DNA of 37,683 nt from Candidatus Acetothermia bacterium (GCA_028275205.1 JAPWVB010000002.1:1-37683); one strand, 5' to 3'; counted from the stretch's first letter, positions 10,001-29,289 are shown. Program-made: numbers and translations. Notes: generated by a model not told the origin, from the sequence alone.

Positions 10001-10314
10001 ATCAAGACCACGGGGAGCATCAATCTGCGCAAGGAGAATCCTGCCGCCTGCAGGGCGATCAATTCCCGATCGTGGCTCAATCTTCCCAATGCCCAGAAGA
10101 TCGCAAACAGCACTCCCACCGGCAGCCCGTAGACTAAGAGCTCTGGCAACCGATACCCTAGCATCTGAAAGATCGTCGCGATAGAGATATTGCGGTCGAG
10201 CATGAAGTCCGAGAGCTGCGGAATCAGATTGAGCACGATGAAGAGCACAAAGCCCACGACAGCCAGCACGAACGGGAAGAGCATCTCTCGAATGAGATAC
10301 CGATCGACCAACAT
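7054..10314 (-). CDS. In-frame fusion of an LptF/LptG-family LPS-export permease (aa 1-~365, nt 9220-10314) with an LptD/OstA-type outer-membrane LPS-assembly protein (aa ~398-1086, nt 7054-9123)
   Basis: The N-terminus (MLVDRYLIREMLFPFVLAVVGFVLFIVLN) and the layout of 3 TM + ~150-aa periplasmic insert + 3 TM fit YjgP/YjgQ (LptF/G). Next comes RLRRLVPFALIIALGSANGWA|QE, which looks like a signal peptide. After that are OstA-like beta repeats (LTVTHDWSEISAEGHVELSYEKSHLTAHRVQA...). LptD barrel-type motifs follow (KTYGVPVFWAPVYFASL, NPLLPDFGQIPERGWYLRWRWPF) within a ~600-aa beta-rich region. There is no stop codon anywhere in the 3261 nt. Confidence 0.78.
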   Translation of the reverse strand: MLVDRYLIREMLFPFVLAVVGFVLFIVLNLIPQLSDFMLDRNISIATIFQMLGYRLPELLVYGLPVGVLFAIFWALGRLSHDRELIALQAAGFSLRRLMLPVVLMGLITTMAAFAVGELWMPWANHRYYDLLREIFFMRSVPQIRESTFIKLSETAYAYIERYDPATKKLVNVMIFDKGGGEYLAELEGRFPKIIVAAEGVWDGDYWRLTDGKLHKLTPDGRFEYTVTFEKLSLRAGPFLQRLFVEQRTPHEMSIAELFRQIEVLRRSGLGAESLIVEVHSKIAVPFSALIFALFGAPLSLIFAQGGAPRGRAAGVIISVLLVGCYQGLLLWLSTLGKRGVLDPVLAPWAPNLLFLVIGVVLLIWLDRLSRLDLFARLRRLVPFALIIALGSANGWAQELPPLALDLHADRLTVTHDWSEISAEGHVELSYEKSHLTAHRVQARRSSEQWQIVAEGEVVFEEEGLKAQAERLELRIRRDGASWQTDEALLERAQITYEQGTLTAAEIQMKPSWVAHVRDFLGETRFESAAKKQEILRFAGSAARATFSPEGHLKLLEITRGEVTTCSCGPISCSDYSLAAGTVRLEPNESIWATNITLKTYGVPVFWAPVYFASLKEETKNPLLPDFGQIPERGWYLRWRWPFVIDKDNTGTVLIDYYTKLPEVGMGIEYRYRFFSSQGQISVYRLVGRGESWATDWTHRATLPFSMTLSGTISWRTGVLQQEIQRLSSRIALSGGAHLVRWNVLWSRDQYLVLPEEREETVLYRFLEKAPEFSLSLVPLRIGSLPLSVLGTFSWGRYREKKLDQESLDESARWDALIGVQSLALGNELITVQGSASYRLSFYEPAQHRRDAYELTVGMSLRPLPGVSAEATYSYRRVFGQSPLSFDTLTLVHTLAARATWATVPFRPALSVRYDFIKRAFEPLQISLKETLLGLETRFDVEYDLNAYLLQRVGLTVSASLLNLQLSTGYKFAERQFEDTILKISWGAHRLGANFDLNRFALRRFNLETQWLWNEWELTFGGEYDLGAQRWTALQLGIVKQFCRGCWQLGLYSDSQRIWVQAQINAFPTARVRYSPTDSRLSFGSP

Positions 10315-12741: not shown

Positions 12742-14259
12742 TTAGGGCAAGCAGACCTGCCCATCGGGCACAGCTGGGCTATTCCAAGGGTGACTCCCCG
12801 GATTGCCCATGCCCTTCTGGTTCCCCCAGCGATTGTTGCCCTCAATGATATTCGTGCCCTCGAAAGTCACCGTCCCCGTGAAAGCGTCGGATGGGAAGCC
12901 GCATTGCGTGAGTGCAGCGGCGATCCCCCAATCCCAGTTCTCTCTTATGACTGAGTCAGTCAGCTTCAATTGGGCTTGGCCGGAGAGCGCAATCCCGTTG
13001 CAAATCACCCATCCCATCGAGCACTCTGGGAAAGTGCCATTGCCAATGATAGAGCTGCTTTGCACCTCGAAGACAGCAGGACCAAATATCGCAAGCCCGT
13101 CGAAGCCATTATCGAAAATCTTGACATTGCTGAGCTGCCCCTGGCCAGCGATGAGCAGAGCGCTTCCTCGCCCTTCGGTCGTGATCGCTAGATTCTCTAG
13201 CTGTATCCCAGAGATTCCAGCGATCATAGAGCCTACAAGCCCGCGCCCAGTCAGAGCTTTCAAGAGCGTCTGCTCCGGCCCGGCCCCACGGAGCGTCACA
13301 GGCTTCCACAGCGTCAATCCCACTTCATAGATGCCCGGAGCTATCGTGATCATGCCCCCAGGGGCAATCGCATCTATAGCTTCTTGAAGATTCGCATAGT
13401 CACCAGGAACAGTGAGTTCAGTCTTCTCAGTCTGCGGGGCCAAAGGCTTCCGCAGCGAGGCAGGAGCAAAGCCGCACAGATCAGCCCCGTTACTTTGGAA
13501 CTCTTGAGGAGGCCCGAGCACCTGGGCCTCCGCCGTCGCCACTGTTAAGCCGCACCAACTGTTGTTCACAAAGCGACTCTCAGAGATGGTCACGCGGGCG
13601 GAGCCGGCTACAGTTAGCCCCCGACCGTTATCGCTCACCGTAGTAGCCACAAGCGTCATGCGAGCAGAATGCCCCACGAAGATCCCGTCAGCGTACCCAG
13701 TCTCCCTAATCAAGGAATTTCTGATCGTCACCTCAGCGGAGTTCAACACCAACAGCCCTCTCCACGTGTTCCAGTGAATGTCCACGTTGTCAAGCTGGAG
13801 CTGGGCCATATCCGTGACGACGATGCCATGACTGTTGCGGCGGATTTCCATGTTGCGGATTGCGACCTTGGCTTGGCCCTGAACGTAGACCCCAGAAAGC
13901 TCAGGCAGAAATTCGCTCCCGGGCATCCACGACTCCGTGAAATCCTCAAGGACGACTTCGATTGGTTTATCGCCCTTGATATGGATAATTGGCTTATCGC
14001 CGATTTCCTTGCCTGTCAGGAACGTCTTGTCTCTTCCGGCACCACGCAGCGTCAGGCTCTTTGTGATCGTCAGATGCTCCGTATACGGGAAGTTGTTCGC
14101 GCTCATGCAGATGACTGCGCCTTCAGGGGCACTGTCAATAGCTGCCTGAATGGACTGCTCCGGCTGTACTGTGAGGGTGCACGTGGGTTGCTCTTGTTCG
14201 CTGGCCTGGGTGAGTGCCACCAAAGCCGAAAGTATAGCGACACAAAACCACTTTGACAT
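12742..14259 (-). CDS. Secreted right-handed parallel beta-helix (NosD/CASH/pectate-lyase-fold) repeat protein with an internal two-module duplication
   Basis: Signal peptide MSKWFCVAILSALVALTQA, with a GAGGAGG RBS. The module header occurs twice: IQAAIDSAPEGAVI...LTITKSLTLRGAGRDKTFL and LQEAIDAIAPGGMITIAPGIYEVGLTLWKPVTLRGAGPEQTLL. Each is followed by short I/V-x-N/G-rich repeats typical of beta-helix coils. Confidence 0.7.
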   Translation of the reverse strand: MSKWFCVAILSALVALTQASEQEQPTCTLTVQPEQSIQAAIDSAPEGAVICMSANNFPYTEHLTITKSLTLRGAGRDKTFLTGKEIGDKPIIHIKGDKPIEVVLEDFTESWMPGSEFLPELSGVYVQGQAKVAIRNMEIRRNSHGIVVTDMAQLQLDNVDIHWNTWRGLLVLNSAEVTIRNSLIRETGYADGIFVGHSARMTLVATTVSDNGRGLTVAGSARVTISESRFVNNSWCGLTVATAEAQVLGPPQEFQSNGADLCGFAPASLRKPLAPQTEKTELTVPGDYANLQEAIDAIAPGGMITIAPGIYEVGLTLWKPVTLRGAGPEQTLLKALTGRGLVGSMIAGISGIQLENLAITTEGRGSALLIAGQGQLSNVKIFDNGFDGLAIFGPAVFEVQSSSIIGNGTFPECSMGWVICNGIALSGQAQLKLTDSVIRENWDWGIAAALTQCGFPSDAFTGTVTFEGTNIIEGNNRWGNQKGMGNPGSHPWNSPAVPDGQVCLP

Positions 14260-14494: not shown

Positions 14495-16528
<2,034 letters not shown>

Positions 16529-16536
16529 CCCCCCGA

Positions 16537-16561
16537 CCCCCTTCCCTACAAGGGAAGGGGG
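16537..16561. terminator. Perfect 11-bp GC-rich hairpin (cccccttccct-aca-agggaaggggg) in the ligA/protease convergent gap
   Basis: Read directly: arms at 16537-16547 and 16551-16561, with a 3-nt loop. It begins 9 nt after the ligA stop. No clean U-tract follows, so its function as a terminator is uncertain. Confidence 0.4.
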
Positions 16562-16571
16562 AGCTCCTCTT

Positions 16572-16617
16572 ACCTCTCCCTGACCCCCTCCGTTTACGGA
16601 GAGGGAAGGGGAGAGGT
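16572..16617. repeat. Nested palindromic (REP-like) element, copy A
   Basis: The sequence is acctctccc-tga-cccctccg-ttta-cggagaggg-aag-gggagaggt. It has an outer 9-bp stem, a 3x3 internal loop, an inner ~8-9-bp stem (one bulge) and a 4-nt loop. Copy B at 30869-30912 has the same architecture. Confidence 0.5.
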
Positions 16618-16622
16618 CAGTC

Positions 16623-19600
16623 TTACCCTGGCCAGCAGCTTGCCGTCTCGAAGCCGCTCGCTTGCGCGGGCACACAGAGCCGCGTGAACTCCTCAAACGG
16701 CAAGAGCGACTGATTCGCCGCGTTCTTGATGATGAACGGGTTGCTGAACGGCAGGTAGAACCCAGGGACGCGCCCAAGACCCGTAATGAAGATGAAGATC
16801 GTATTGGTCTGGGTGCGCTCTGGGGTACCGTCTCCGTTGACGTCGAGCAGGAGCTCGATGCGAGCAGCCGAGACGGTGTCGCTCAAGGGTATGGAGTAGA
16901 TAACCCGTCCGTTGCTGCGCACGGAGCCAGCGAGAGTGAGCTGGGTCTGCTGGCCGGTGACCTGCGGGACGGGCTGAGCTGTCGCCGCGCCCTCGGTCTG
17001 CACACTGACGCCCTCGATGAGGCCGTTGACGGCGAGCGAGATCTGATAGGGCCGATCGCTGTTCCAGCCCGTAGCCCCCTGGACGATGAGGTAGAGCTTA
17101 TCGGTGCCCATGATGAAGAGCCCGCCGGCCCCAAGAGGGATATATGGTCGCGGTGTCGGCGTGGGCGGTGCGCTCGTCGTCTGCACAGTGATGCTCTTCG
17201 ATTGCGTGTTGGAGAGCCCTTGGTCGTCGGTGACGCGCAGCGTCACTGTATAAGTTCGGGCTTGCGAGAAGGCAAAAGCGACGCGCACGCCTTGGGCGTC
17301 GAAGCGCCCATCACTGTCGAAGTCCCAGTCGTAACGGACAATGCGCCCATCGGGATCAGTCGAGCACGACGCGTCGAACGTGACGGGCTGATTGACGATG
17401 GGAGTGGTCGGGCTGAACGTGAAGCACGCCGTTGGGGCGCGGTTTTGCGGAGGCGCAGTAGTTCCGACTTGGAAGCTTGTGAACGCGCTCGTCCACGTCG
17501 CCGACGGCGCGACGCTCTGGATGCGGCGAGCAAGCTCCGCGCGGAATGTTTCGGGGTTGAGCCAGCTTGTGCTCTGCAGGCCGTTGAGCCCCAAATCTAC
17601 AGGTTGCGCGATCGCGACGGCGTGGAGATACTCCGTGCCCTCCGGCCCGGTGATCGCGAGAGTATATGGCCCATCGGGCAGGGTGTACGTCCCCGCGCTC
17701 AAGAGATTCTGGCGCGAGAACGAGTTCGGGAAGACTTGGGAGACTCGACCCGCGGGGTCAACGTCGAAGACGTAGACATACGCTTGGGCGCCCAGACGCA
17801 AGAAGATCTGCAATCTCTCGCCGATGCGGTAGCTCGTCTTATCGGTGCTGATCGAGATCGAGAGCTGGCTGGGCGTCGAGGCCCGAACGGTGATCTGGCG
17901 AGAGTTATTGGTCTCGTCAGATTCGGAGATCTGTCTGAGGGCGTCGGCAGTGACGGTGAACGTCTCTGAGGAGCTGTTGAGCCGTCGTGCGAAGTCCACT
18001 CGCACCGAGGCTCCGGCGCGCAGCCCAGTGACGCTCTGGCGAGCCGTTCCCGCGCTATCTTGCACCTCGACGACGAACGGCCCGGCGTCGGCGTTCCCGA
18101 TGTTGCGCACGATCGCAGTCAGCGTGAGCGAGCTGCCCACGGCGGGATCGCGCGGGGAGTAGTCAAGAGAGTCTACCGTCAGATCGGGCAGGCGCGTCTC
18201 GGCTAACGCCTCAATGCGCACTTGTGTCGAGTTATTCGTCTCGTTCGATTCGTCAACTTGGTTGGTGACGTCGGCAGTGATCGTGAAGATCTCTGTAGCG
18301 TTATTCTGGCGCCGAGCGAACGCTATCGAGACGGAGCTTGCGGCTCCCAGCCCCGAGAGCGTCCGACGATCTATGCCGGCGCTGTCGCGGATCTCGACAA
18401 TGAACGGCCCAGCGGCGCTCTCGCCCTGATTGCGCACGACGACGGTGAAATTGATGGTCTCGCCGAGCCGCGGCGTCCGCGGCGTCCAGTCAACCCCAGC
18501 AATAGTAAGATCGGGCTTTCTCTGAACTTGAGGCTGAGCGTCTACCCGGATCTGCGCAGAATTATTCGTCTCGTCGAGCTCGTCTATCTGATTAGTTGCG
18601 TCCACGACGATCGTGAAGAACTCTGTAGTGTTATTGACTCGGCGGGTGAAGCTGACGGTCGCTGTGCTCCCGACTGCGAGCCCCGAAAGCGTCTGGCGGT
18701 CTGTTCCGGCGCTGTCGCGCACCTCAACGATGAATGGGCCGGCGTTCGCTTGGCCTTGGTTGCGCACGACTACAGAGAGCGTGACGTTCTGGCCGACGGT
18801 GAGCGTGCGCGGGGACCAATCGGTGCTTGCGATCGCTAGGTCGGGTTTCAGAGAGGGCTGCGTCGCGGTGACGCGCAGCTCCGCTGAGTTATTGGTCTCG
18901 TTGGATTCGTTCACTTGGTTGGTCGCGTCAGCGACGACCGTGAAGGTCTCCGTCGCTTGGTTGACGCGGCGAGTGAACGAAAAGCTCGTCGAACCCCCGG
19001 CGTTCAGGCCCGAAACCGTGCGACGATCGGTGCCGCCGCTGTCGCGGATCTCGATGACGAACGGGCCGGCGTCGGCGTTTCCAATATTGCGCACGATCCC
19101 GCTCACCGTGACGAAATCCCCGACGCGGGGGTTGGACGGACTAGAAGTGAGCCCGCTCACAGTGAGATCAGGCTGGCCGGGCGGTGGGCTGGACTGAGCA
19201 AGATTGAGCCGGCCAGAGCCAAACTGCAGCGGCGAGCCCATAGGGACGGCATCGCCCTTGAGGCGAGCTTCGAGCTGCCCTGCCGTCAGGGATGGGTTTT
19301 CTGAAAGCAAGAGCGCCGCAGCCCCAGCGACGTGCGGCGCGGCCGCTGATGTGCCAAAAAACTCTGAGTACGTAAACGTCGAGACGCGATCGGGCCCGAC
19401 GATATCAGGCTTGGAGAGCCCGGCGTTGGTCGGCCCTTGGGAGCTGTAGGGCGCGATGGGGCCGGTCGTCCAATTCTGGCGGTTGACCGCGCCGACGGTC
19501 AGGGCATTGGGCGAATCCCCCGGCGCGATGATGCTATTGGAAGGCACAGGGTACTCGACGTCATGATTGAGGCTGAAGAGCGAGAACGTCCGCGGCGCGG

Positions 19601-20798
19601 GGTTCCCGTCGGCTTTAATCTGAATGTGATATGTCCCAGGGACGAACGACTGATAGAAGAGACTTTCGATCGGAGGCTCGGTGCCAGATTGAATGCGTTG
19701 CGACGCTGCGACTTGAGTGCCGTTGCTGTTGAACAGATAGAGATCGTAATCGTTGGCTGAGCCGGGCCAGTCGTTCCACGTGAGAAAGACCCCGATCTGA
19801 TCCCCCGCGTTCACGGTGATCGTCAAAGATTCATCGCCGGAGGCGAACTCGTGCCATTTGTTGCCGTTCGTGTCACGGAACGTCCCCTGCCAGTGGCGCC
19901 GCGCGTAATTGCCCGCAGCGTTGACCCACAGCACTCCACGGCTTCGGGCATCAGCGACGATATTGTTAATCACCCCTGTGCCGTCATAGAAGTTCGTATT
20001 GAACCAGCCCACTGAGTGATTGATGATCTTTGCGCCCTGGCGGATCGCTTCTTCCTTGGCGTTCTCTAGGTCAACTTCGTCGCCAACTTTCATTAAGATG
20101 AGTTGGGCTTGTGGAGCCATGTCATAAACGATCTCGGCGACGGCCGTGCCGTGATTCGTCCCGGATTCGATCCCCGTGCCAGTGTAGTCAAACGTTTGGA
20201 TGCCGCCAGGGAGTTCCCCGCGGCTCTGGGCTGCTGTAAGCCCAGCAAACCCCAGATCAATCACGGCGATTTTGACGCCCTGGCCACGAAAACCCAAAGA
20301 ATGATAGTTCGATGCGCCGGTGAGCGCGACCCCTTCGCTGACCACGAGCGTCTGAGGAACGAGCGGAGGCCGCACGAACTGAACGACGCCTCCCGCTTGG
20401 AGGAGCGCAGCCCGCAAGAGCCCAAGATTCATGGGCATCTGGACCTTCCACGCAAACTTGGAGGTTGCCACGACCTGCCCACGCATGAACGCGATCTGCC
20501 TCTTCAGTAGGTCTTGAGCAGCGGGGTCTTGGCTGATGCTCTCAGGCACTTGCCAGATCACCGTCACCATGTTCCCCCAAACGGGGACGCGGAACTGCGC
20601 GGCGGCTTGGGCCGCGGCTTGCGCTTGGCCCTGCTCCCCAAGCTTCAGAATCTGCTCGAGCACGCTGTCTATCCGAGGGTCGTGTTCCAACCGAGCGATG
20701 CTCTTAGGATCAGAGGGCTCTTGGGTCAGCCCCATCGTGCCGAGCACCACTAAGACGAATCCACACAGAATCCAAAAGAGATAGTGATGTCTGCGCAT
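16623..20798 (-). CDS. Large secreted multidomain S8 subtilisin-family serine protease: signal anchor, prodomain, S8 with an inserted beta-sandwich, 4x CARDB, DUF4384-like, PKD, and an unassigned C-terminal domain
   Basis: Catalytic triad contexts are KIAVIDLGF (Asp), GTNHGTAVAEIV (His) and FFGTSAAAPHVAGAAALL (Ser), with oxyanion VNAAGN. Four ~110-aa repeats (PDLT/AI...VRN[IQ]G...AGPF[VI][VI]E[IV]...SG[LT]...NETNNS) are CARDB-like. YVYVFDVDPAGRVSQVFPN is DUF4384-like. FTFSPTTPIVNQPVTFDASCSTDPDGRIVRYDWDFDSDG is PKD. An AAGGAG RBS lies upstream of ATG 20798. Confidence 0.9.
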   Translation of the reverse strand: MRRHHYLFWILCGFVLVVLGTMGLTQEPSDPKSIARLEHDPRIDSVLEQILKLGEQGQAQAAAQAAAQFRVPVWGNMVTVIWQVPESISQDPAAQDLLKRQIAFMRGQVVATSKFAWKVQMPMNLGLLRAALLQAGGVVQFVRPPLVPQTLVVSEGVALTGASNYHSLGFRGQGVKIAVIDLGFAGLTAAQSRGELPGGIQTFDYTGTGIESGTNHGTAVAEIVYDMAPQAQLILMKVGDEVDLENAKEEAIRQGAKIINHSVGWFNTNFYDGTGVINNIVADARSRGVLWVNAAGNYARRHWQGTFRDTNGNKWHEFASGDESLTITVNAGDQIGVFLTWNDWPGSANDYDLYLFNSNGTQVAASQRIQSGTEPPIESLFYQSFVPGTYHIQIKADGNPAPRTFSLFSLNHDVEYPVPSNSIIAPGDSPNALTVGAVNRQNWTTGPIAPYSSQGPTNAGLSKPDIVGPDRVSTFTYSEFFGTSAAAPHVAGAAALLLSENPSLTAGQLEARLKGDAVPMGSPLQFGSGRLNLAQSSPPPGQPDLTVSGLTSSPSNPRVGDFVTVSGIVRNIGNADAGPFVIEIRDSGGTDRRTVSGLNAGGSTSFSFTRRVNQATETFTVVADATNQVNESNETNNSAELRVTATQPSLKPDLAIASTDWSPRTLTVGQNVTLSVVVRNQGQANAGPFIVEVRDSAGTDRQTLSGLAVGSTATVSFTRRVNNTTEFFTIVVDATNQIDELDETNNSAQIRVDAQPQVQRKPDLTIAGVDWTPRTPRLGETINFTVVVRNQGESAAGPFIVEIRDSAGIDRRTLSGLGAASSVSIAFARRQNNATEIFTITADVTNQVDESNETNNSTQVRIEALAETRLPDLTVDSLDYSPRDPAVGSSLTLTAIVRNIGNADAGPFVVEVQDSAGTARQSVTGLRAGASVRVDFARRLNSSSETFTVTADALRQISESDETNNSRQITVRASTPSQLSISISTDKTSYRIGERLQIFLRLGAQAYVYVFDVDPAGRVSQVFPNSFSRQNLLSAGTYTLPDGPYTLAITGPEGTEYLHAVAIAQPVDLGLNGLQSTSWLNPETFRAELARRIQSVAPSATWTSAFTSFQVGTTAPPQNRAPTACFTFSPTTPIVNQPVTFDASCSTDPDGRIVRYDWDFDSDGRFDAQGVRVAFAFSQARTYTVTLRVTDDQGLSNTQSKSITVQTTSAPPTPTPRPYIPLGAGGLFIMGTDKLYLIVQGATGWNSDRPYQISLAVNGLIEGVSVQTEGAATAQPVPQVTGQQTQLTLAGSVRSNGRVIYSIPLSDTVSAARIELLLDVNGDGTPERTQTNTIFIFITGLGRVPGFYLPFSNPFIIKNAANQSLLPFEEFTRLCVPAQASGFETASCWPG
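17880..19180 (-). repeat. Four diverged tandem coding repeats of ~330 nt (the CARDB modules of the protease)
   Basis: The plus-strand landmark ga[ga]ttatt[cg]gtctcgt... recurs at ~17901, 18229, 18559 and 18887, a period of ~328-330 nt. The repeats are in frame. Array boundaries are approximate. Confidence 0.8.
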
Positions 20799-20813
20799 AG
20801 CTTCTCAGCTCCT

Positions 20814-21632
20814 TTACAGCCCTGGCTGGGCCGGTGGGCGAACGAACTTCACCGCCGGATCACGGGCTAACGCAACTAACTGATGGATCGGAACGAGCAC
20901 GCGCATCAACCCCGAGGGCGAGCGCGCTTCAACAATGAGATTATGGGTCGGAGCTAGTTGGGCCTCCGGGGAGACTAGCTCGACGATTACTCGCACTCGC
21001 AAGCCCCAGAGCTCTAATTTCTGTTGGGGCGCAAATTCGTACCAATCGGGCATGAGCATGAGCGCGTAGAGCACCGAATCTAAGCGAACGCCTTCAGGGG
21101 GCTTGGGGGGCTTGACCCCCGGCACGACCGTCAGCTCTTCGACCGCCAGGGGCAGCGTTGGGTCGGACACGACGGAGAGTTGAACTAGCCTCTGCCCGAT
21201 CTCGTCGAGGATCGCCGACGCGCTTACGGTAGTTATGGGGGCCACAATCAGCTCATAGCCCTCGCTCTGGGCTGGTCGAAGATTATATTTCGAGAGCAGC
21301 CCGTCGGCGCGGAGCCATAAGAGCTCTCCATCCACGAAGAGATGAGGGAACTTGAGGCGCTCTCGCTCGTTCTCCGGAGTACAGTCCAGACACGGCTGCG
21401 TCCCAAGAAAGTACTTCACAGTAGAGTCCCGGGCGATCCGCACCGAAAAACCCGCTTGCTTTGCAGATTCGATGATCTTGGCCATGTCAGCCTCGATGCG
21501 CGGGAGCAAGACGCGATAATACTTACCCGCAAAGAGAATGGGGTCGGCCATGAGGGGGATCGTTGGCTCGTTGTGGAATATACTCAGCGAGAGAGCTGTC
21601 AAGAGCACGCCGAGTATGAAGATCTTCAGCAT
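20814..21632 (-). CDS. Exported or membrane-anchored protein of unknown function whose C-terminal domain resembles the subtilase prodomain
   Basis: N-terminal hydrophobic anchor (MLKIFILGVLLTALSLSIF), with an AAGGAG RBS. The C-terminus (...NLIVEARSPSGLMRVLVPIHQLVALARDPAVKFVRPPAQPGL) aligns by eye with the protease N-terminal region (GQVVATSKFAWKVQMPMNLGLLRAALLQAGGVVQFVRPPLVP). It lies 15 nt upstream of the protease start. Confidence 0.6.
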   Translation of the reverse strand: MLKIFILGVLLTALSLSIFHNEPTIPLMADPILFAGKYYRVLLPRIEADMAKIIESAKQAGFSVRIARDSTVKYFLGTQPCLDCTPENERERLKFPHLFVDGELLWLRADGLLSKYNLRPAQSEGYELIVAPITTVSASAILDEIGQRLVQLSVVSDPTLPLAVEELTVVPGVKPPKPPEGVRLDSVLYALMLMPDWYEFAPQQKLELWGLRVRVIVELVSPEAQLAPTHNLIVEARSPSGLMRVLVPIHQLVALARDPAVKFVRPPAQPGL

Positions 21633-21654
21633 TGAGGGCTCCTTTCGTAAGTCT

Positions 21655-22350
21655 TCAGGACTTCTTCAAGCGCGTGGCGATGTTCTGGGCGATCTGGGCC
21701 CATTCCGCTGCGCTGACGACTTGCTCGATGTACGCAGTCAGCGTCTGGGGAATCAGGGGATTGCGCGCCAGACGCAGTTGCACGGCGGACTTGATCGCGT
21801 TGGCGTCGTCGAGCTTGCCCCCACCTCGCACATGGTCTTCTAAAGCTCCCGCAGCTTCAGTAATCGCCGTGTCTACGGCTTCGAGGGTGAGCACGAGCGT
21901 CGCCGTCCCGAATCGAATGGTGAGATTGATTGTGATGCCTTTGCTTGCCAGAAGCGTCTTCACTTCCGAGAGCGTCATCTTGCGCTCCAAGAGGTCGTCA
22001 TTGATGACATCGAGGGGGACGCCCTTAGTGAGTCCCTCGAATGTCTTATCTATAAGCATAGTGACGGGCAGCTCTTCTAAGAGCGCCCGCGCGATGATCT
22101 GCAAGACCCCCTCGCGCAGCGAGATCGGAGCTGAAGATTGCTTCAGTCTCTGGCAGAGCCGCAGCGCGGTGTCGGGGGTGATGCGCTTATCTGAAAAGCC
22201 CTTGTCAAAGCCTGCTTTCAACGTCTGCAGGTCCGAGACCCCAAGCTCAGCAAAACACTTATAGACGTCTTGAGGGGTTGGCTGGGCGAAAGCATCGCCC
22301 AAGCCTCCCAAAAGCCCAAGCGTGAGAAGAATCCCCATCAGCCATCTCAT
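21655..22350 (-). CDS. Exported protein of unknown function, predicted mostly helical
   Basis: Signal peptide MRWLMGILLTLGLLGGLGDAFA|QP, with a GAGGTGA RBS. Its start overlaps the anti-sigma stop by 4 nt (ATGA). I recognise no family motif. Confidence 0.6.
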   Translation of the reverse strand: MRWLMGILLTLGLLGGLGDAFAQPTPQDVYKCFAELGVSDLQTLKAGFDKGFSDKRITPDTALRLCQRLKQSSAPISLREGVLQIIARALLEELPVTMLIDKTFEGLTKGVPLDVINDDLLERKMTLSEVKTLLASKGITINLTIRFGTATLVLTLEAVDTAITEAAGALEDHVRGGGKLDDANAIKSAVQLRLARNPLIPQTLTAYIEQVVSAAEWAQIAQNIATRLKKS

Positions 22351-22856
22351 GGCTGCTCACCTCGCGGTGCTATGTATAAGACCGAATTGATCTTGTCGTC
22401 AAACGTATGGACGAATTCCGAAGCGCGCGGGTCGTAGACCCACCGCTCGCCGTCTACTATAAATCCGTACTCATACCGACCAGGCTTGATATCATCGGGG
22501 AGCCGAATCCACCAGACGCCGCTGCGATCGGGGCCGTTCATGGGGATGGGCTCCCACAGCGTAAACTGACTCGCCAAGCTCACGCTCTTGGCGTTGGGGT
22601 AGACCAAGCAGAGCACCTGAGGGTCATGACAAGGAGCCCCTGAGAGATTCCCCCCTACCCATAGGCCAATCACGAAGACTGCGGCGACAGCGACCGCGCC
22701 CGCCCCGACAAGCCCCCAGCGCCATCGCGGCGCCGGCCGACTTTCGGGAAGCTCCTCGATGATCTCATACTCAAGATCAGCAATCCGATCGCGATGGGCC
22801 TCAGCGTACTGAGTCAACGTCTCTTTGAGCAGGGCTTCTAGCTCATGGTCGTGCAT
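22347..22856 (-). CDS. Single-pass membrane anti-sigma factor candidate with an extracytoplasmic CBM48/AMPK-beta glycogen-binding-like (E-set) domain
   Basis: It overlaps the ECF sigma gene stop by 14 nt, with an AGGAG RBS. It has a short cytoplasmic helix (MHDHELEALLKETLTQYAEAHRDRI), one TM helix (WGLVGAGAVAVAAVFVIGLWVGG), and then VYPNAKSVSLASQFTLWEPIPMNG...GVWWIRLPDDIKPGRYEYGFIVDGERWVYDP. No HxxxCxxC zinc motif is present. Confidence 0.6.
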   Translation of the reverse strand: MHDHELEALLKETLTQYAEAHRDRIADLEYEIIEELPESRPAPRWRWGLVGAGAVAVAAVFVIGLWVGGNLSGAPCHDPQVLCLVYPNAKSVSLASQFTLWEPIPMNGPDRSGVWWIRLPDDIKPGRYEYGFIVDGERWVYDPRASEFVHTFDDKINSVLYIAPRGEQP

Positions 22857-23399
22857 GGTGTGCCACTCCTTTCTGCTCGAGAATGCGTTTCAATTCGGCC
22901 TTGGCGCGATGGAGCCGCGTCTTGACCGTCCCTTCGGGCAGCCCCAAGGCCTCCGCAATCTCTTTGTAATCTAAATCCGCATAATAGCGCAGCACCAAGG
23001 GCATTCTATAAGCGGGCTTCAGCTGCTCGATGGCCTCGCGGATCGTGCGCGTGCGCTCCTCTTGCGCGAGCCGCTGCGCAGGATCGCTCCCTTTTGTTAA
23101 TTTCGAGATATATTTGAGCGGGGCGAAGAGCCGCTCGCGGCGCAGCTTGTTCTTGCATACGTTCGCGGTCACCGCGAAGATCCACGTCGAGAATCGCTTT
23201 TCAAGGTGGAACGTATGCAGCCCTTCGTAAGCCCGAATGAACGCGTCATGGGCGGCATCTTCGGCATCGGCGGGATTGCCCAAGATCCCCAAGGCAATCC
23301 CAAAGACCGCATCTTTGTAGCGTCTCACGATCTCACCCCAGGCGTCCACATCCCCGTGGAGCGCCCGCTGAATTAACTCCAACTCCCCCGCGCCCATGC
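22843..23399 (-). CDS. ECF-type (sigma-24/group 4) RNA polymerase sigma factor
   Basis: Region 2 is DAEDAAHDAFIRAYEGLHTF...FSTWIFAVTANVCKN. Region 4 HTH is DYKEIAEALGLPEGTVKTRLHRAKAELK. The start is ATG 23399, preceded by AGGAGGA. The ORF-track start at 23448 would run through the putative promoter. Confidence 0.9.
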
Positions 23400-23419
23400 T
23401 TCCTCCTGTGTGCAGAGTA

Positions 23420-23448
23420 TATACAGACTGCTCATGGCAAAGTTTCAA
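23420..23448 (-). promoter_or_regulatory. Promoter candidate for the ECF operon: TTGAAA-17 nt-TGTATA
   Basis: On the minus strand, TTGAAA corresponds to plus-strand 23443-23448 and TGTATA to plus-strand 20-25 of 234xx (23420-23425). A ~14-nt leader containing AGGAGGA follows. I saw no ECF-type GGAAC...CGTC motif. Confidence 0.3.
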
Positions 23449-23588
23449 ACTCTATTTTACCCCAAGAGGGATCAGCTGACCCAATGAAGACTCGACAAAC
23501 GTCCGCTCATCGCCCCGCGCCAGTCCTTCCCTCCCGTGGAAGAGATACTCTAAAGTGAGCTAGTCAGCTGAATTGAGGAGGAAAGACC

Positions 23589-24815
23589 ATGCGGCGTTCG
23601 TTTGAGATCGGGATTCTCTTGATAATCTTGGCATTGTCAGGGTGTACCCTTGCGCAAGCTCCCTTTGCGTTCTTCGTGGCCTCTCCGACGGTTGGGGAGG
23701 CCCCGCTGAAAGTCAGCTTCAACGCGTCGGGCTCCAGCGACCCCGACGGCACCATCGCCCAATACGAGTGGGATTTTGACAACAACGGCTCCATAGACGC
23801 CACCGGGGTCACCGCGACCCATACGTATTCATCGTCGGGCCTCTACACCGCGGTGCTGACCGTGACGGACAATACAAATCTCAAGAGCAAGTTTACGCTC
23901 CTCATCACCGTGCTGGAACCGACGATCTTCTTCTCTCGATGGGACGGTGGGAGCAATTTCGGGATCTTTCGCATGAACACAAACGGCACTGCGCTCACGC
24001 AGCTGACGATGGGCATAGACGCCTGGCCGGCTGTGGCTCCTAACGGCCGCCAGCTCGTGGCGTTCGCCCGCGACATGGACCCTGATCCTGCGGGTTTTCA
24101 GTTCGATATCTTCACGATGCTCCCCAACGGTACCCTGCAGACAGATCTTACCCCGCAAAGCCCAAGCCAAGAGATCCAACCGACTTGGTCGCCTGACGCA
24201 ACAAAGATCGCGTTTGCGACCAATCGCGATGGACACTTTGAAATCTATAAGATGAACGCCGACGGGACGAGTCCCTCTCGCGTCACGACCGTCACGCCCA
24301 AAGACGCCTTCGCCCCACGCTGGTCGCCGACCAATCCCAATCTCTTGATCTTCGTGACGAACAACGACACCGCCCCAAACGCCCTCGACATCTGGAAGAT
24401 CAACGCCGACGGCACGGGGCTGACCAATCTCACCAACCGCCCCAGCTATAACGATGGGGCCATCTCGCCGCTCTCCGGGTTTCCTTCTCCGCCCAGCTGG
24501 TCGCCCGACGGCACCAAGATCGCCTTCACTTCAGATCAGACGGGGAATTTAGACATCTTCGTGATGAACGCCGACGGCACGAATATCGTTAGCCTCAATA
24601 CGTTCGCCTCGTCTAGCACAGCGAATCTGTCAACGTCGAATGAGTTCGACCCCTTCTGGCTCCCCAACGGACAGGAGATCGCGTTCGTCTCCGATCGCGA
24701 TGGGACGTATCAGATCTATAAAGTCAATCTCTCGACTGGGGCTGTGACCCAGCTGACCCCCGGCGGGATGAACCTCATGCCCGCCAGAACGAGCAGCACC
24801 ACGAACGAAAGATAG
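23589..24815 (+). CDS. Lipoprotein with an N-terminal PKD domain and a TolB-like (PD40/WD40-like) beta-propeller
   Basis: GAGGAGG RBS and lipobox (LALSGC). The PKD region is PLKVSFNASGSSDPDGTIAQYEWDFDNNG...YTAVLTVTDN. PD40-type repeats recur: P.WSPDGTKIAF.S.R.G...I[YF].MNADGT, appearing as WSPDATKIAFATNRDGHFEIYKMNADGT and WSPDGTKIAFTSDQTGNLDIFVMNADGT. Confidence 0.85.
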   Translation: MRRSFEIGILLIILALSGCTLAQAPFAFFVASPTVGEAPLKVSFNASGSSDPDGTIAQYEWDFDNNGSIDATGVTATHTYSSSGLYTAVLTVTDNTNLKSKFTLLITVLEPTIFFSRWDGGSNFGIFRMNTNGTALTQLTMGIDAWPAVAPNGRQLVAFARDMDPDPAGFQFDIFTMLPNGTLQTDLTPQSPSQEIQPTWSPDATKIAFATNRDGHFEIYKMNADGTSPSRVTTVTPKDAFAPRWSPTNPNLLIFVTNNDTAPNALDIWKINADGTGLTNLTNRPSYNDGAISPLSGFPSPPSWSPDGTKIAFTSDQTGNLDIFVMNADGTNIVSLNTFASSSTANLSTSNEFDPFWLPNGQEIAFVSDRDGTYQIYKVNLSTGAVTQLTPGGMNLMPARTSSTTNER

Positions 24816-26233
24816 ACAACCCAATCTCCAAGCTGCACGTAGAGCGTCGCGCGGTCCTGCAGGAGGATCGTCTCCTGCAGGATCTGCTCTTTTTCAGAGC
24901 GCGTGGCTATGAGAATCTTTCCGTGCGGGTCAATCACCCCAGAGACGCCCCCGTTGGCAGCTTGCAGAGTAAAACGCCCCGTTTCTACGGCGCGAAAGAT
25001 CGCCTTGGCGAAGTGCTGATCAAGGGCTTTGGAACGCTTGAACCACGCGTCGTTCGTGATAATGAGAATCGCTTGGGCGCCGTTGCTGACGAATGCCCGG
25101 CTGATCCGCGAGAAGATGGACTCAAAGCAAATCGGGGTTGCTAGCTTCACTCCTTGAGGGAGGAGAAGCGGGCGAAATCCATCTCCCGGCGTGAGCGCCC
25201 CCAGCGGCAACGGCCCGATCAGATTCTCTAAGCCTAAGCGACGCAAGAGCCCGATCATTGGGAAATATTCGGTGCTGAACGGCACCAGCTGGACTTTGTC
25301 ATAGAGATCTGAGACTCTTCCCTCGGGCGCGATCAGCGCAGCTGTGTTCAAGAGTTTTCCATCGCGGTAGTCAATCGTCCCTACGATGAGCGAGGCGCGG
25401 AGGCGTCGCGCTTGCTCCTGATAGGGCCGAAGAAGCTCTTCTTGGCGGAGCAGATACGCCGGCACGATGGATTCCGGAAGGAGCACAAGGTCAACGCTCT
25501 CTGGAGAGAGCTGATCTAACTGAGAGAGATAGAGCGTCTGCAGGGCTTGGAGCTGCCCCGGATCGCTGCGAGCTCGCTGCGGGACGTTCGAGTGCACGAT
25601 CGCTACCCGCAGTGGCTGTCCTTCGGGGAGAGCGCGAGCAAGCTGATACGCCCCCCAGCCCCAGTCGAGCGCAATGAGCCCCATCGCGAATACACTGTAG
25701 AGCAGACGGCGCTCGCGCACCGCGCGATAGAGCAGAAGATTCACGAGCACAATGAGCATCGAGATTCCCCACGTCCCTGTCAGGGAAGCGACCTGAATGA
25801 GCGCAGGGTACTGAGCGAGCGCATCGCTCACAAATCCCCACGTGAACCCAAAGCGCGTCAGCGAACGCAGATATTCTAAGAGAACCCACAGCGCCGGCAC
25901 AGCTATCCACAGATATTTTCTATAGCCTTGCATAGCGACATACGCCGTGCCAAAGAGCCCCCACCACAGCGCCAACAGCCCCGCCAACCCCAGATGCCCA
26001 AAGATAATCAAAGCCCCGGCCCACTCGAAGAGCGTATACACCCAATACAAAAGCAGCGCGAAGAAGGCGAACCCGCACAGATACCCCAGGCCAAAGCCCT
26101 GACGCGGCGTGCTCCCCTCCAGAGCGAAAAAGAGCGGCACGACCGCCACGAAGATCAGCCCGCCCCACAGATACCCCGGCATACTGAACAGTATCAAGAG
26201 GGCTGAGAAAATCGCCAAGATCGCTCGAAACAT
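24716..26233 (-). CDS. lnt: Apolipoprotein N-acyltransferase Lnt
   Basis: A multi-TM N-terminal region is followed by a CN-hydrolase domain: VDLVLLPES (Glu), a conserved Lys region, and ATPICFESIF (catalytic Cys). A C-terminal TM helix is present. Confidence 0.9.
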   Translation of the reverse strand: MFRAILAIFSALLILFSMPGYLWGGLIFVAVVPLFFALEGSTPRQGFGLGYLCGFAFFALLLYWVYTLFEWAGALIIFGHLGLAGLLALWWGLFGTAYVAMQGYRKYLWIAVPALWVLLEYLRSLTRFGFTWGFVSDALAQYPALIQVASLTGTWGISMLIVLVNLLLYRAVRERRLLYSVFAMGLIALDWGWGAYQLARALPEGQPLRVAIVHSNVPQRARSDPGQLQALQTLYLSQLDQLSPESVDLVLLPESIVPAYLLRQEELLRPYQEQARRLRASLIVGTIDYRDGKLLNTAALIAPEGRVSDLYDKVQLVPFSTEYFPMIGLLRRLGLENLIGPLPLGALTPGDGFRPLLLPQGVKLATPICFESIFSRISRAFVSNGAQAILIITNDAWFKRSKALDQHFAKAIFRAVETGRFTLQAANGGVSGVIDPHGKILIATRSEKEQILQETILLQDRATLYVQLGDWVVYLSFVVLLVLAGMRFIPPGVSWVTAPVERLTL

Positions 26234-27184: not shown

Positions 27185-28039
27185 ATGAATCCGATTCTTA
27201 TCGAGATCCCTATGCCCTTTGGCTGGCCAAGCTTGCAGATACGCTATTACGGCTTAATGTACGTGATCGCGATTCTCGTGGGGATATATCTGACGCGCCG
27301 CGAGTGCGCCCGCAAGGGGCTGCCCCTCACGCTCGACGACATCTTAGATTTTGTGCTGATCACCGTGCCTGTGGCGATCATCGGGGCGCGACTCTACTAT
27401 GTTGCCTTCCAATGGGCGAACTTCTACGTGCCCGGCGATCTGGGAAAGACGCTGCTCAATATTATCGCGATCTGGGAGGGCGGCTTAGCTATTCACGGGG
27501 GCATTCTCGCGGGGCTGCTCATGCTCTGGGTCTACTCTCGATGGAAGAGAGTCTCGTTGTGGCAGTTTGCCGACGCCGTGGCTCCCAGCATGATCTTGGG
27601 CCAAGCCCTCGGACGATTTGGAAACTTTATGAACGGCGATGCGTACGGGGTGCCGCTGGGGCCAGAATGGCCCCCGTGGCTCGATTGGGTCGGAGTCGTC
27701 TACAAAGAGGGTACGCCCGGATTCCAACAGTTTGGGTACATCCCCACCCACCCCACCATGCTCTATGAGATGTTCGGCGATCTCGTAATATTTGGGGTGC
27801 TGATGTGGCTGCGGAAGAAGGACTTCCAAGACGGATTTATCGCGTCGCTGTATATGGTGCTGTACTCGTTCTTGCGCTTCTGGATGGAGTTTTTGCGCGC
27901 AGACGCCCTCTGGCTCATCCCCGATGTGCTGCGAGCTGCCCAAGTGATCAGCGTCATTCTCTTTCTTGTCTTTGGGGCGTTCATTCTCGTGAAGAAGCTC
28001 TACGTGCGCAAGGCGATCGCCGCGCCGTCGGGCTCATAG
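27185..28039 (+). CDS. lgt: Prolipoprotein diacylglyceryl transferase Lgt
   Basis: Family motifs are present: YGLMYVIAILVG, GARLYYV, IWEGGLAIHGGI and GRFGNFMNGDAYG. Confidence 0.93.
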   Translation: MNPILIEIPMPFGWPSLQIRYYGLMYVIAILVGIYLTRRECARKGLPLTLDDILDFVLITVPVAIIGARLYYVAFQWANFYVPGDLGKTLLNIIAIWEGGLAIHGGILAGLLMLWVYSRWKRVSLWQFADAVAPSMILGQALGRFGNFMNGDAYGVPLGPEWPPWLDWVGVVYKEGTPGFQQFGYIPTHPTMLYEMFGDLVIFGVLMWLRKKDFQDGFIASLYMVLYSFLRFWMEFLRADALWLIPDVLRAAQVISVILFLVFGAFILVKKLYVRKAIAAPSGS

Positions 28040-28753
28040 CTGAAAGTCTTCCCCAAGATAGTACTTTCGCGCCAGAGGGTGAGAGGCGATCTCCTCAGGG
28101 CGACCGCTGAGCAGGAGCTTCCCCTCGTTGAGCAGATACGCGTAGTCCGTGACGCGCAGCGTCTCCCGCACGTTGTGATCAGTCACGACAACGCCGATCC
28201 CATCAGACGCTAACGCGCGCATGATCTTTTGGATCTCGGCGACGCTCAAGGGGTCTATCCCGGAGAACGGCTCGTCCAGCAAGAGGAACTTCGGGGAAGT
28301 CGCTAAAGCGCGCGCAATCTCCACACGGCGGCGCTCCCCGGCCGACAGCGTGTCTACCCGCTGATGCGCCAGATGGGCAATGCCGAGCTTCTCTAAAAGC
28401 TGCAGGGCTCTCATCTGACGCGCCCGCGGCTCCCGCTCCCACCGCTCCAAGACGAGCAACAGATTCTCGAGCGCGCTGAGCTTGCGGAAGACCGAGGGCT
28501 CTTGAGGCAGATAGTGAATGCCCGCTCGCGCGCGCGCATAGAAGGGCCACCGCCCAATGGGCCGCTCGTTTAAAAAGACCTCCCCGGACTCGTGAGCGAT
28601 CAGCCCCGTGATAATATAGAACGTCGTGGTCTTGCCCGCGCCATTGGCTCCCAGCAACCCCACGACCTTGCCGCTCTCGATCTGCAGCGAGACGCCATCA
28701 ACGACGCAGCGCCCGCTGTAGCTCTTGATCAAGCCTTCCGTACGTAGAATCAT
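28034..28753 (-). CDS. lptB: LPS export ABC transporter ATP-binding protein LptB
   Basis: Walker A is GLLGANGAGKTTTFY, the LptB-typical Q-loop context is IHYLPQEPSVFRKLS, the signature is LSAGERRRVEIARAL, and Walker B is LLLDEPFSGIDP. The length is 239 aa. Confidence 0.92.
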   Translation of the reverse strand: MILRTEGLIKSYSGRCVVDGVSLQIESGKVVGLLGANGAGKTTTFYIITGLIAHESGEVFLNERPIGRWPFYARARAGIHYLPQEPSVFRKLSALENLLLVLERWEREPRARQMRALQLLEKLGIAHLAHQRVDTLSAGERRRVEIARALATSPKFLLLDEPFSGIDPLSVAEIQKIMRALASDGIGVVVTDHNVRETLRVTDYAYLLNEGKLLLSGRPEEIASHPLARKYYLGEDFQL

Positions 28754-29289
28754 TTCTTCCGCAAGATGAGTCGCGCATCGTGGAGGATCGTGGCTCGCCC
28801 CGTCTCTGAAGAGTATTCAAAGCCCCGTCCCGTCAGGATGAACTCCTCGCTCTCGATGCGCACCGCTGATGATGTCGTCAAGATCTTCTTCTCGTTGCTC
28901 CACAAGAGATTCTCCGTGCTCAGCGAGAAGTCGCGCCCACTGACAACAATCTCCCCTGGCAGCTCGATATCCCCAGTGCGATTGTGCAGCTTCGCCAGAG
29001 GAGCGCGGACCGTGAGCGCTTCCTGCCCTTCGCTGTCGAAGAAGTGCAGCGTGATCTCCTCAGCAATGCTCATATCTTCCCCGATGGACAGCGCGGACGC
29101 GGCAAGCTCCCAAAGCTTCTTCCCGTGCTCATCGTAGCGCACGATATGGGCGCGATCAGCTGAAAGTATAGAAGCGCGAGAGTCTCTCATCTCCGGCCAC
29201 AGATGAGAGACCGACGACCAGAGCCAATAGAGCCCCCCGATGCTCCCAACGATCAGCCCCAGACCAAGGACTTGCGCCGCGCGAGACAT
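28750..29289 (-). CDS. lptC: LptC-like membrane-anchored periplasmic LPS-transport protein (OstA-fold)
   Basis: N-terminal TM anchor ([18 protein letters not shown]) followed by a ~150-aa beta-rich domain. It overlaps the lptB start by 4 nt. Size and position match lptC. Confidence 0.65.

Follow-up and report, generated by a model that had tools for sequence, protein, structure and literature searches.

The sigmaE-RseA-RseB system of Escherichia coli and the AlgU-MucA-MucB-MucC-MucD system of Pseudomonas share a genetic organisation in which the sigma factor gene is followed by the gene of a single-pass anti-sigma factor and then by that of a secreted protein. In the AlgU operon of Pseudomonas, the last two genes are those of a small membrane protein and of an exported serine protease. 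Here, we analyse a locus with the same gene-order architecture in a stretch of 37,683 nucleotides (nt) from Candidatus Acetothermia bacterium (GCA_028275205.1, JAPWVB010000002.1:1-37683), hereafter the window. It encodes a sigma factor of the extracytoplasmic function (ECF) type, a single-pass candidate anti-sigma factor, a secreted protein of 231 amino acids (aa) in the RseB/MucB position, a membrane-anchored 272-aa protein (p272) and a 1391-aa protease of family S8 (subtilase). Unlike in the sigmaE and AlgU operons, the protease is S8 and not HtrA/S1C, and the putative sensor is a CBM48 domain; the resemblance is functional and positional only. Our preferred reading, to which we give a probability of roughly 0.6, is that of a lineage-conserved, autoregulated ECF operon of a probably diderm member of the Bipolaricaulota, in which a sensing module and a protease module are joined. 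We know of no cultured representatives of Bipolaricaulota/OP1.

Each half of the operon has its own closest described relatives. The sigma factor finds its best NCBIfam and PDB match in SigW of Bacillus subtilis, and a promoter of the TGAAAC type characteristic of SigW lies before its own gene, as expected for autoregulation. Unlike in the SigW/RsiW pair, the partner is not a zinc anti-sigma factor but has a CBM48 ectodomain instead, and the host probably belongs to a diderm candidate phylum. On the protease side, membrane-tethered helpers are encoded beside large exported hydrolases in the case of PrtM of Lactococcus (for the S8 protease PrtP) and of the Lif foldases (for lipases of Pseudomonas and Burkholderia), and both are needed for the folding or activation of the partner hydrolase. 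PrtM is a PrsA-like lipoprotein and Lif an all-helical steric chaperone; neither is known to have the propeptide fold, unlike what is predicted here for p272. The propeptide of subtilisins stays bound after cleavage with its C-terminus in the active site, acting both as a chaperone and as a tight inhibitor (PMC6993865). There are also stand-alone propeptide-like inhibitors, i.e., PBI2 of yeast, POIA1 of Pleurotus, SPI-1 of Arabidopsis, MIC5 of Toxoplasma and SUB1-ProM of Plasmodium, the last of which is encoded next to subtilase genes (PMC6993865). The examples given in that work come from fungi, plants and apicomplexans only, and all are eukaryotic and soluble. Like them, p272 is a separate gene product with a predicted propeptide fold, homologous to the cognate prodomain. 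Unlike them, it is bacterial, membrane-anchored and endowed with an extra N-domain of ~130 aa, it has R-P-P in place of the helix-capping E-x-D, and it appears to be a true paralogue and not a convergent mimic.

The genes of the operon and the structures that follow it are arranged in the window as follows (SD, Shine-Dalgarno motif).

22843-23397, minus strand: ECF sigma factor gene, 184 aa, SD AGGAGGA
22347-22856, minus strand: single-pass anti-sigma candidate gene, 169 aa, SD AAGGAG
21655-22350, minus strand: gene of the 231-aa secreted protein, SD GAGGTGA
20814-21632, minus strand: gene of the 272-aa membrane-anchored protein, SD AAGGAG
16623-20798, minus strand: gene of the 1391-aa S8 protease, SD AAGGAG
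16572-16617 and 16537-16561: a pair of GC-rich stem-loops, in the gap separating the stop codons of S8 and the convergent ligA

A previous description of this block, made from the DNA alone (the sequence-only reading), had reported five co-directional minus-strand genes with junctions of -14, -4, +22 and +15 nt, an SD-like motif for each of them, and GC-rich hairpins solely 3' of the last gene. The listing of open reading frames (ORFs) and a scan of 16400-23650 agree with this in every respect, except that the sigma start had been placed at 23399, which gives a span that is no multiple of 3: the ATG is at 23397 and is preceded by AGGAGGA. A TTG start at 23448, proposed by the mechanical ORF call, was rejected: it would engulf the promoter, and homologues lack it. 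The hairpin region folds with a minimum free energy of -75.2 kcal/mol (z = -3.55), and the 11-bp arms at 16537-16561 form the sole perfect short-loop inverted repeat in 16400-23650. The stem-loops at 16537-16617 are thus a probable bidirectional terminator for the convergent S8 and ligA genes. A sigma-70 promoter scan inside the operon gave no match, and no second site of the ECF-type motif described below was found there. A single promoter and gaps of at most 22 nt fit one sigma-driven transcription unit, and a single autoregulated transcript would be the simplest model.

We compared this organisation across 39 fetched loci (given L numbers below), tabulated by tblastn and hidden Markov model (HMM) searches. 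All organism-named homologues of the 231-aa and 272-aa proteins are from Candidatus Bipolaricaulota/Acetothermia (OP1), among them metagenome-assembled genomes (MAGs) that carry the label 'Fraserbacteria' or, in a few cases, 'Thermotogae'. With duplicates removed, ~17 distinct Bipolaricaulota-type loci have the full block, in which Lnt and a convergent TolB-like PKD/PD40 gene are followed, in divergent orientation from the latter, by the genes of sigma, the CBM48 protein, the 231-aa protein, the 272-aa protein and the S8 protease. Except for L007 and L009, all loci with a 272-aa homologue and sufficient sequence upstream keep this order, and deeper clades have an extra DUF4384-PKD gene between the 231-aa and 272-aa families. 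Identities go down to 55% (sigma), ~30% (anti-sigma candidate), ~29% (231-aa protein) and 35% (p272) among them, and the sequence beyond the block differs by locus (ligA, CoA-transferase, or PhoH/7TM-HD). Both proteins for which no family had been recognised thus co-occur with an ECF pair and an S8-CARDB protease, and the idea that they lack a conserved linkage to such genes does not hold. The view of the block as accessory has to be given up: in GC content it does not differ from the remainder of the window, and its position is syntenic phylum-wide (Lnt and TolB-like upstream, often ligA downstream). A mobile island was rejected on the same two grounds.

The comparison also revealed that the operon has two parts. 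The triad of sigma, CBM48 and 231-aa genes occurs without the protease: in L032/33 nothing related lies downstream of it, and in L035 and L036 the next gene encodes a DUF4384-PKD protein with homology to residues ~977-1351 of the S8 protein, while an S8 domain and a 272-aa gene are both lacking (L037 has the full set). All distant members of the 231-aa family stand directly after ECF sigma and CBM48 single-pass genes, usually with a 4-nt ATGA overlap. Reciprocally, L009 has the pair of p272 and S8-CARDB genes and none of the three triad genes in the 10 kb upstream of it, and L011 has the pair on a contig devoid of informative upstream sequence; in these two loci, which hold the most distant 272-aa homologues, the gene abuts or overlaps that of the S8-CARDB protease. 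Wherever downstream sequence is present and identifiable, a p272 homologue is directly upstream of an S8 gene, even where there is no sigma gene. The existence of triads without protease and of pairs without triad suggests that the units under selection are [sigma/CBM48/231-aa] and [272-aa/S8], and the operon of the window is a fusion of the sensing triad with the protease pair. The block had been called a self-contained module, and this is right in that its genes are conserved together and wrong in that they form two separable units.

In other lineages, stand-alone DUF4384-PKD proteins that follow the triad are homologous to residues 977-1389 of the S8 protein. Such DUF4384-PKD(-PEGA) genes lie at 8612-9940 in L003, 8527-9909 in L005, 3494-5326 in L035 and 5228-6913 in L036; the copy in L003 has its own ECF-type promoter, and the clade of the window lacks this gene. 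The module made of DUF4384, PKD and the C-terminal domain may be the ancestral output.

The domains and the gene layout bear out the presence of an ECF sigma factor with an adjoining single-pass membrane protein. Sigma matches Pfam Sigma70_r2, Sigma70_r4_2 and Sigma70_ECF and consists of regions sigma2 and sigma4 only. With a TIGR02937 score of 109.7 against a cut-off of 42.9, it falls within the ECF (group IV) sigma-70 family. Its best NCBIfam matches are the SigW models, at scores below the equivalog cut-offs (140.5 versus 209 for NF007223 and 126.4 versus 243.1 for TIGR02948), and the nearest solved structure is that of B. subtilis SigW (5wuq, E = 2e-28). Its profile scores thus suggest a SigW-like factor and not a SigW orthologue. 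The main text of the ECF classification of Casas-Pastor 2021 makes no mention of a CBM48, AMPK or S8 context, and we found nothing relevant in the literature on sigma factors or subtilases of Bipolaricaulota or on a matching ECF group context.

The prediction of a promoter for this sigma factor gave a conserved ECF-type site, the sole one in the window, with a second conserved box beside it.

23418-23447, minus strand: ECF-type (SigW-like) promoter TGAAAC-N16-TGTATATA, ~50 nt upstream of the sigma ATG
23454-23459, minus strand: TAnAAT box (here TAAAAT), directly 5' of the ECF -35 element

The core of the promoter, TGAAAC-N16-TGTA at 23422-23447(-), lies within the 190-nt intergenic region between sigma and the TolB-like gene. 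The pattern TGAAAC-N15-18-KGTA has this one match on both strands of the window, where 0.13 are expected. Nearly every related locus has the motif 47-62 nt ahead of the sigma start, with AGTA for KGTA in a few of them; in one soil-like locus there is no clear copy. In an alignment of 18 loci, the TGAAACTT and GTAnAT columns show full or almost full conservation and the spacer varies freely. The conserved motif, TGAAAC-N16-(T/C)GTA, corresponds to promoters of the SigW type (TGAAAC at -35, a CGTA-like -10 and a spacer of ~16 nt), in agreement with the closest relatives of sigma, and the site is predicted to be recognised by sigma. We are fairly confident in predicting that the promoter before the sigma gene is an autoregulated ECF promoter. 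The same motif occurs in the intergenic gaps before output genes in three loci, i.e., upstream of the DUF4384 gene in L003, of the gene of a PKD protein in L033, and of the unk87-PEGA/PKD-p272-S8 run in L037. With a background of ~2e-6 matches per position, these three placements are very unlikely by chance, and they link sigma to the DUF4384/PKD/S8 genes as a regulon.

Further elements lie upstream. The T, A, A and T columns of the TAnAAT box are invariant in the 18-locus alignment, and the box is possibly a sigma-70-type -10 element for basal expression. A conserved element TTTGTCT-N10-14-GACAG-TGTCG is found at 23470-23500 (-), upstream of the sigma promoter region, and recurs at equivalent positions in L001, L003, L005, L014-L030 and L037; the copy in L001 is a perfect 7-bp inverted repeat, CTTTGTC...GACAAAG. 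This could be an operator for another regulator or part of the control region of the divergent TolB-like gene. Together, the box and the inverted-repeat-like TTTGTC...GACA element suggest additional control.

The 169-aa product of the second gene has a helical N-terminus of ~44 aa, a transmembrane (TM) segment at ~45-69 preceded by RWRW, and a CBM48/AMPK-beta-like domain at 82-165. Its gene directly follows that of sigma in all related loci, and the two overlap, by 14 nt in the window and by 8-14 nt in other loci. It fits an operational definition of an anti-sigma factor, i.e., a gene downstream of and overlapping that of an ECF sigma, encoding a single-pass protein with predicted N-in topology, and we infer the anti-sigma role from this position, overlap and topology. 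Neither a zf-HC2 match nor a CxxC in the N-terminus, as in the HxxxCxxC zinc motif, was found, and the protein is not recognisable as an anti-sigma factor of the class I anti-sigma domain or zinc (ASD/ZAS) type. A weak NCBIfam match to CU044_5270 reaches 22 bits against a cut-off of 100. The CBM_48 score is 29.9 (cut-off 22.4), and 10/10 family members match both the CBM_48 and the AMPK1_CBM models. When the domain is aligned to AMPK beta1 (1z0n), W101 and W139 fall on W100 and W133, the glucan-stacking residues of AMPK beta1. Within the family, W101 is invariant, W139 nearly so, and the TM segment is conserved too. Both stacking tryptophans are thus kept relative to the CBM48 of AMPK-beta, whereas K126 of AMPK beta1 is a glycine here. 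Unlike in proteins of the AMPK/isoamylase type, a transmembrane anti-sigma-like N-terminus precedes the domain in the same chain, and the domain would face the periplasm or the exterior. The ectodomain, a CBM48-type beta-sandwich, is probably glycan-binding, and a role for such a ligand is predicted. In the literature, we found no description of anti-sigma factors of the CBM48/AMPK type. Full-length relatives of the protein are confined to Bipolaricaulota-type sequences.

The 231-aa protein has a signal peptide ending in AFA|QPTP. Its AlphaFold2 (AF2) model (predicted local distance difference test, pLDDT, 90.7) has about ten helices and one beta-hairpin, and a search of the PDB with this model gave no meaningful match, the best being designed helical repeats at a TM-score of ~0.26. 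None of the 21 family members scanned matches a Pfam or NCBIfam family at E <= 5. This includes PF07176, and the 'DUF1400' label that UniRef gives to the homologue H5SJT9 was rejected. The family is rare, with 39 clusters only among 1.84 billion representatives in an exhaustive profile search. Its gene overlaps that of the anti-sigma candidate by 4 nt (ATGA) here and in most distant loci checked, and it follows the CBM48 gene in 27/27 Bipolaricaulota-type loci having one. This invariant coupling to the anti-sigma gene, whatever lies downstream, makes an extracytoplasmic partner of the CBM48 ectodomain or of the anti-sigma factor the role that fits the protein best, for which we see about even odds. 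The sequence-only reading had counted two unknowns without a family. This holds for the 231-aa protein, which has neither family nor fold, and no longer for p272, in which structure prediction and fold search uncovered a prosegment fold.

The latter protein consists of a TM helix at 3-18, an alpha/beta N-domain at ~35-165 and a C-domain at ~180-272 (window 20817-21095). Its AF2 model, from an alignment of 27 sequences, has a pLDDT of 90.8, and gave the following Foldseek matches in the PDB (TMt, target TM-score; rmsd, root mean square deviation).

1spb_P, subtilisin BPN' prosegment: probability 0.99, TMt 0.66
3vhq, pro-Tk-subtilisin: probability 0.98, rmsd 1.8 A
2zwo_B, pro-Tk-subtilisin: probability 0.93
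4i0w_A, CspB prodomain: probability 0.89
4yn3_B, cucumisin propeptide: probability 0.30, TMt 0.63

Two further subtilase precursor or proteinase entries (3whi_B and 8c4z_A) were also found, and nothing else exceeded 0.3 among the matches listed. The model thus points to a subtilisin-propeptide (I9-like) fold for the C-domain. A comparison by hhalign of this domain with the N-terminal profile of the neighbouring proteases gave a probability of 95.7% (E = 9.7e-9) over 89 columns at 33% identity, with a common V-x-F-V-R-P-P motif, and the p272 HMM matches S8 ORFs directly at ~1e-6. The relation requires profile-profile comparison to be seen: BLASTP of the C-domain against the S8 N-terminus returned only a 10-residue match at VxFVRPP. 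We regard it as very probable, from these alignments, that the C-domain is a paralogue of the protease's own prodomain. It is also the most conserved part of p272, VRPP motif included. The protein ends in PPAQPGL-COOH, which the alignment pairs with the PPLVPQT that immediately precedes the mature N-terminus of the protease, placing the C-terminus of p272 within about one residue of the BPN'-aligned autoprocessing site, i.e., approximately at P1. p272 would probably be a membrane-tethered trans-propeptide serving as inhibitor, foldase or dock, and we think it reasonably likely that it has the predicted inhibitor or chaperone function. The N-domain, in which G77, D101 and R119 are invariant, shows no similarity to the prodomain or to the protein's own C-domain and has no confident PDB match; Pfam and NCBIfam families other than Inhibitor_I9, which we discuss below, are likewise without a match in all 27 members at E <= 5. 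A CxxC in the N-domain (residues 81-84, PCLDCTP) is kept in most Bipolaricaulota members and is absent from the most distant homologues, those without a sigma triad; its cysteines might form a disulfide or bind a metal.

The S8 protease is a large, multidomain protein, with the following domains (residue numbers).

1-25: signal or anchor
~40-150: I9-like prodomain
172-529: catalytic domain
542-975: four CARDB domains
989-1063: DUF4384
1119-1205: PKD
1206-1391: C-terminal domain

It scores 89.6 against PF00082 (cut-off 21.8) with an intact triad, D181 (VIDLG), H216 (NHGT) and S484 (GTSAAAPHVAG), and the nearest solved structures to the catalytic domain are subtilisins BPN' and E. An insertion of ~110 residues separates the His and Ser motifs (residues ~300-415; window 19500-19900) and has sub-threshold matches of the beta-sandwich type (ChitinaseA_N, T9SS tail, galactose-binding-like). 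The C-terminal domain (window 16626-17183; ~186 residues) follows a Pro/Thr linker, ends with two cysteines and recurs in the stand-alone DUF4384-PKD proteins that other clades have; it matched no family and might serve in sorting or anchoring. Nothing resembling a known outer-membrane translocation signal was seen in the protein.

This matters for where the exported components act. The window encodes BamA/Omp85, Skp/OmpH, a fused LptF/G, LptC, an LptB-like ATPase, Lgt and Lnt, an envelope gene set which suggests that the host is probably diderm (of the lipopolysaccharide type) and that the exported components may be periplasmic. The surface or extracellular location originally proposed is thus one possibility, and the periplasm another.

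These data can be assembled into a model. The SigW-like sigma would be held at the inner membrane by the single-pass anti-sigma factor, with the helical N-terminus of the latter in the cytoplasm and its CBM48 domain outside. The 231-aa protein would be made in fixed proportion by translational coupling and would probably be the extracytoplasmic partner of the anti-sigma factor. A cue would inactivate the anti-sigma factor, upon which sigma would transcribe from its own TGAAAC-N16-TGTA promoter, amplifying itself and reading through into the protease module; signal-inducibility, and the signal itself, are here predicted from the architecture. The S8 protease would be exported with its own I9-like propeptide, and p272 would most likely dock on its catalytic domain as a tethered trans-propeptide; until its release, the protease would thereby stay inhibited, or folded and held at the membrane.

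Several observations weigh against this model. None of the known Pfam anti-sigma families matches any of 10 family members of the anti-sigma candidate at E <= 5. The 231-aa protein resembles neither RseB/MucB nor any solved structure in sequence or fold, and invariant gene coupling is what its partner role is read from. Pfam Inhibitor_I9 is matched by 0/27 members of the p272 family at E <= 5, the whole-chain Foldseek E-values are poor (at least 0.16) despite the high probabilities, and the length of the p272 tail differs among homologues, which weakens the notion that it ends at P1. Internal promoters of other types may exist in the operon. Finally, the conservation is within one phylum, and the synteny could partly reflect inheritance and not selection.

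Other explanations deserve consideration. The S8 protease might itself be part of the signalling and cut the 231-aa partner or the CBM48 domain, either as a trigger of the site-1 type or as a feedback protease like MucD, with p272 as the gate. Its gene is co-located and probably co-transcribed with the triad in ~17 loci, the product would be exported to the compartment of the sensor domain, and the five-gene layout parallels algU-mucABCD, where a serine protease modulates signalling. However, this is unlikely: the triad is conserved without an adjacent S8 or p272 gene (L032/33, L035, L036), the pair without the triad (L009), and the most consistent companion of the triad is the DUF4384/PKD protein, not a catalytic domain. 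We also find it improbable that the regulon exports the 231-aa protein for a structural or effector role, e.g., as a helical protein associated with the envelope, and that p272 acts mainly through its N-domain, the propeptide-like domain being a relic. The 231-aa protein is indeed unlike any known anti-sigma modulator, and the N-domain is conserved (CxxC in most members) yet without a confident fold match, but the 4-nt overlap couples the 231-aa gene to the anti-sigma gene whatever the downstream output, and the part of p272 that is best conserved is the very C-domain whose VRPP motif is common to the protease. Vertical inheritance alone, with the sigma pair regulating other genes and the protease pair expressed independently, would account for full examples all coming from one phylum and for modules that can each stand alone, but we consider it very unlikely in view of the junctions of -4, +22 and +15 nt, the lack of an internal ECF or sigma-70 promoter match, the hairpins only after the last gene, the persistence of the order to ~35% p272 identity while the outer flanks change, and the appearance of the ECF motif where gaps open between modules (L003, L037).

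The sensing part of the operon has counterparts beyond the phylum. Single-pass proteins of ~200 aa with the same C-terminal CBM48 occur elsewhere, e.g., in a Gemmatimonadales MAG. In L038, the gene of such a protein follows that of an ECF sigma with an 8-nt overlap and precedes that of a secreted 245-aa protein without a Pfam family. Relatives of this 245-aa protein are abundant in soil metagenomes, and the CBM48 single-pass gene is directly upstream in 39/46 loci (those with enough upstream sequence; contigs L038-L119, from soil and other metagenomes). Homology between the 231-aa and the 245-aa proteins was not established (probability of 14-19% and E of ~1e-3 over one stretch of 62 columns, in two comparisons), though the architecture recurs outside Bipolaricaulota. 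In L038 and L039, the 245-aa gene is followed by that of a 392-aa protein with a CBM48-like stretch at its C-terminus.

We raise only tentatively the broader idea that the triad is a widespread, undescribed ECF device, whose ectodomain would read a glucan or envelope polysaccharide with the help of an obligate helical co-sensor, and whose output in Bipolaricaulota would be a protease under the first prokaryotic stand-alone membrane-tethered I9 'safety catch'. Less ambitiously, the analysis offers a concrete and testable candidate circuit of regulation for Bipolaricaulota/OP1, made of a sigma factor, a predicted promoter, a sensor with a plausible ligand class and an output. The triad and the pair, whose members are 'hypothetical' in annotation pipelines, can now be told apart, the 272-aa family acquires a candidate mechanism (trans-acting propeptide paralogue) that in the searched literature is eukaryotic only, and the single-pass CBM48 anti-sigma-like architecture is flagged as recurring beyond the phylum. 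A bacterial membrane-anchored paralogous propeptide would be a novel form of such inhibitors. This extends known themes of ECF regulation and subtilase maturation within current understanding, is not a new kind of system, and provides a lead for work on ECF signalling, subtilase maturation and OP1 biology.

The genes next to the operon, on the side of sigma, are the following.

23589-24815, plus strand: TolB-like lipoprotein gene, lipobox LSGC, with PKD and a PD40 propeller (Pfam, NCBIfam)
24716-26233, minus strand: Lnt (apolipoprotein N-acyltransferase) gene, Pfam LNT_N and CN_hydrolase

The TolB-like gene is present and divergent from sigma in every full S8-type locus, and its PKD domain is ~47% identical to that of the S8 protein. 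No ECF motif was found upstream of it in the window, which lends no support to its membership of the regulon. Almost all full related loci have Lnt beside it; L030 gave no tblastn match. The 3' end of the TolB-like gene overlaps the convergent Lnt gene by 100 nt, an overlap that is of 24-56 nt in L001, L003 and L005. Further away, outer-membrane biogenesis genes lie at 116-1988, 7054-10314 and 27185-29289, and one of them encodes a 1086-aa protein whose first third holds an LptF/LptG domain. No Rfam families or tRNAs were found in the window. Upstream of ligA and on the opposite strand, 12742-14259 (-) encodes an exported 505-aa protein with a signal peptide and a NosD-like right-handed beta-helix. 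In the related Bipolaricaulota contig L003, a SpoVR-family gene at 17119-19950 is split by an intein with a LAGLIDADG endonuclease domain.

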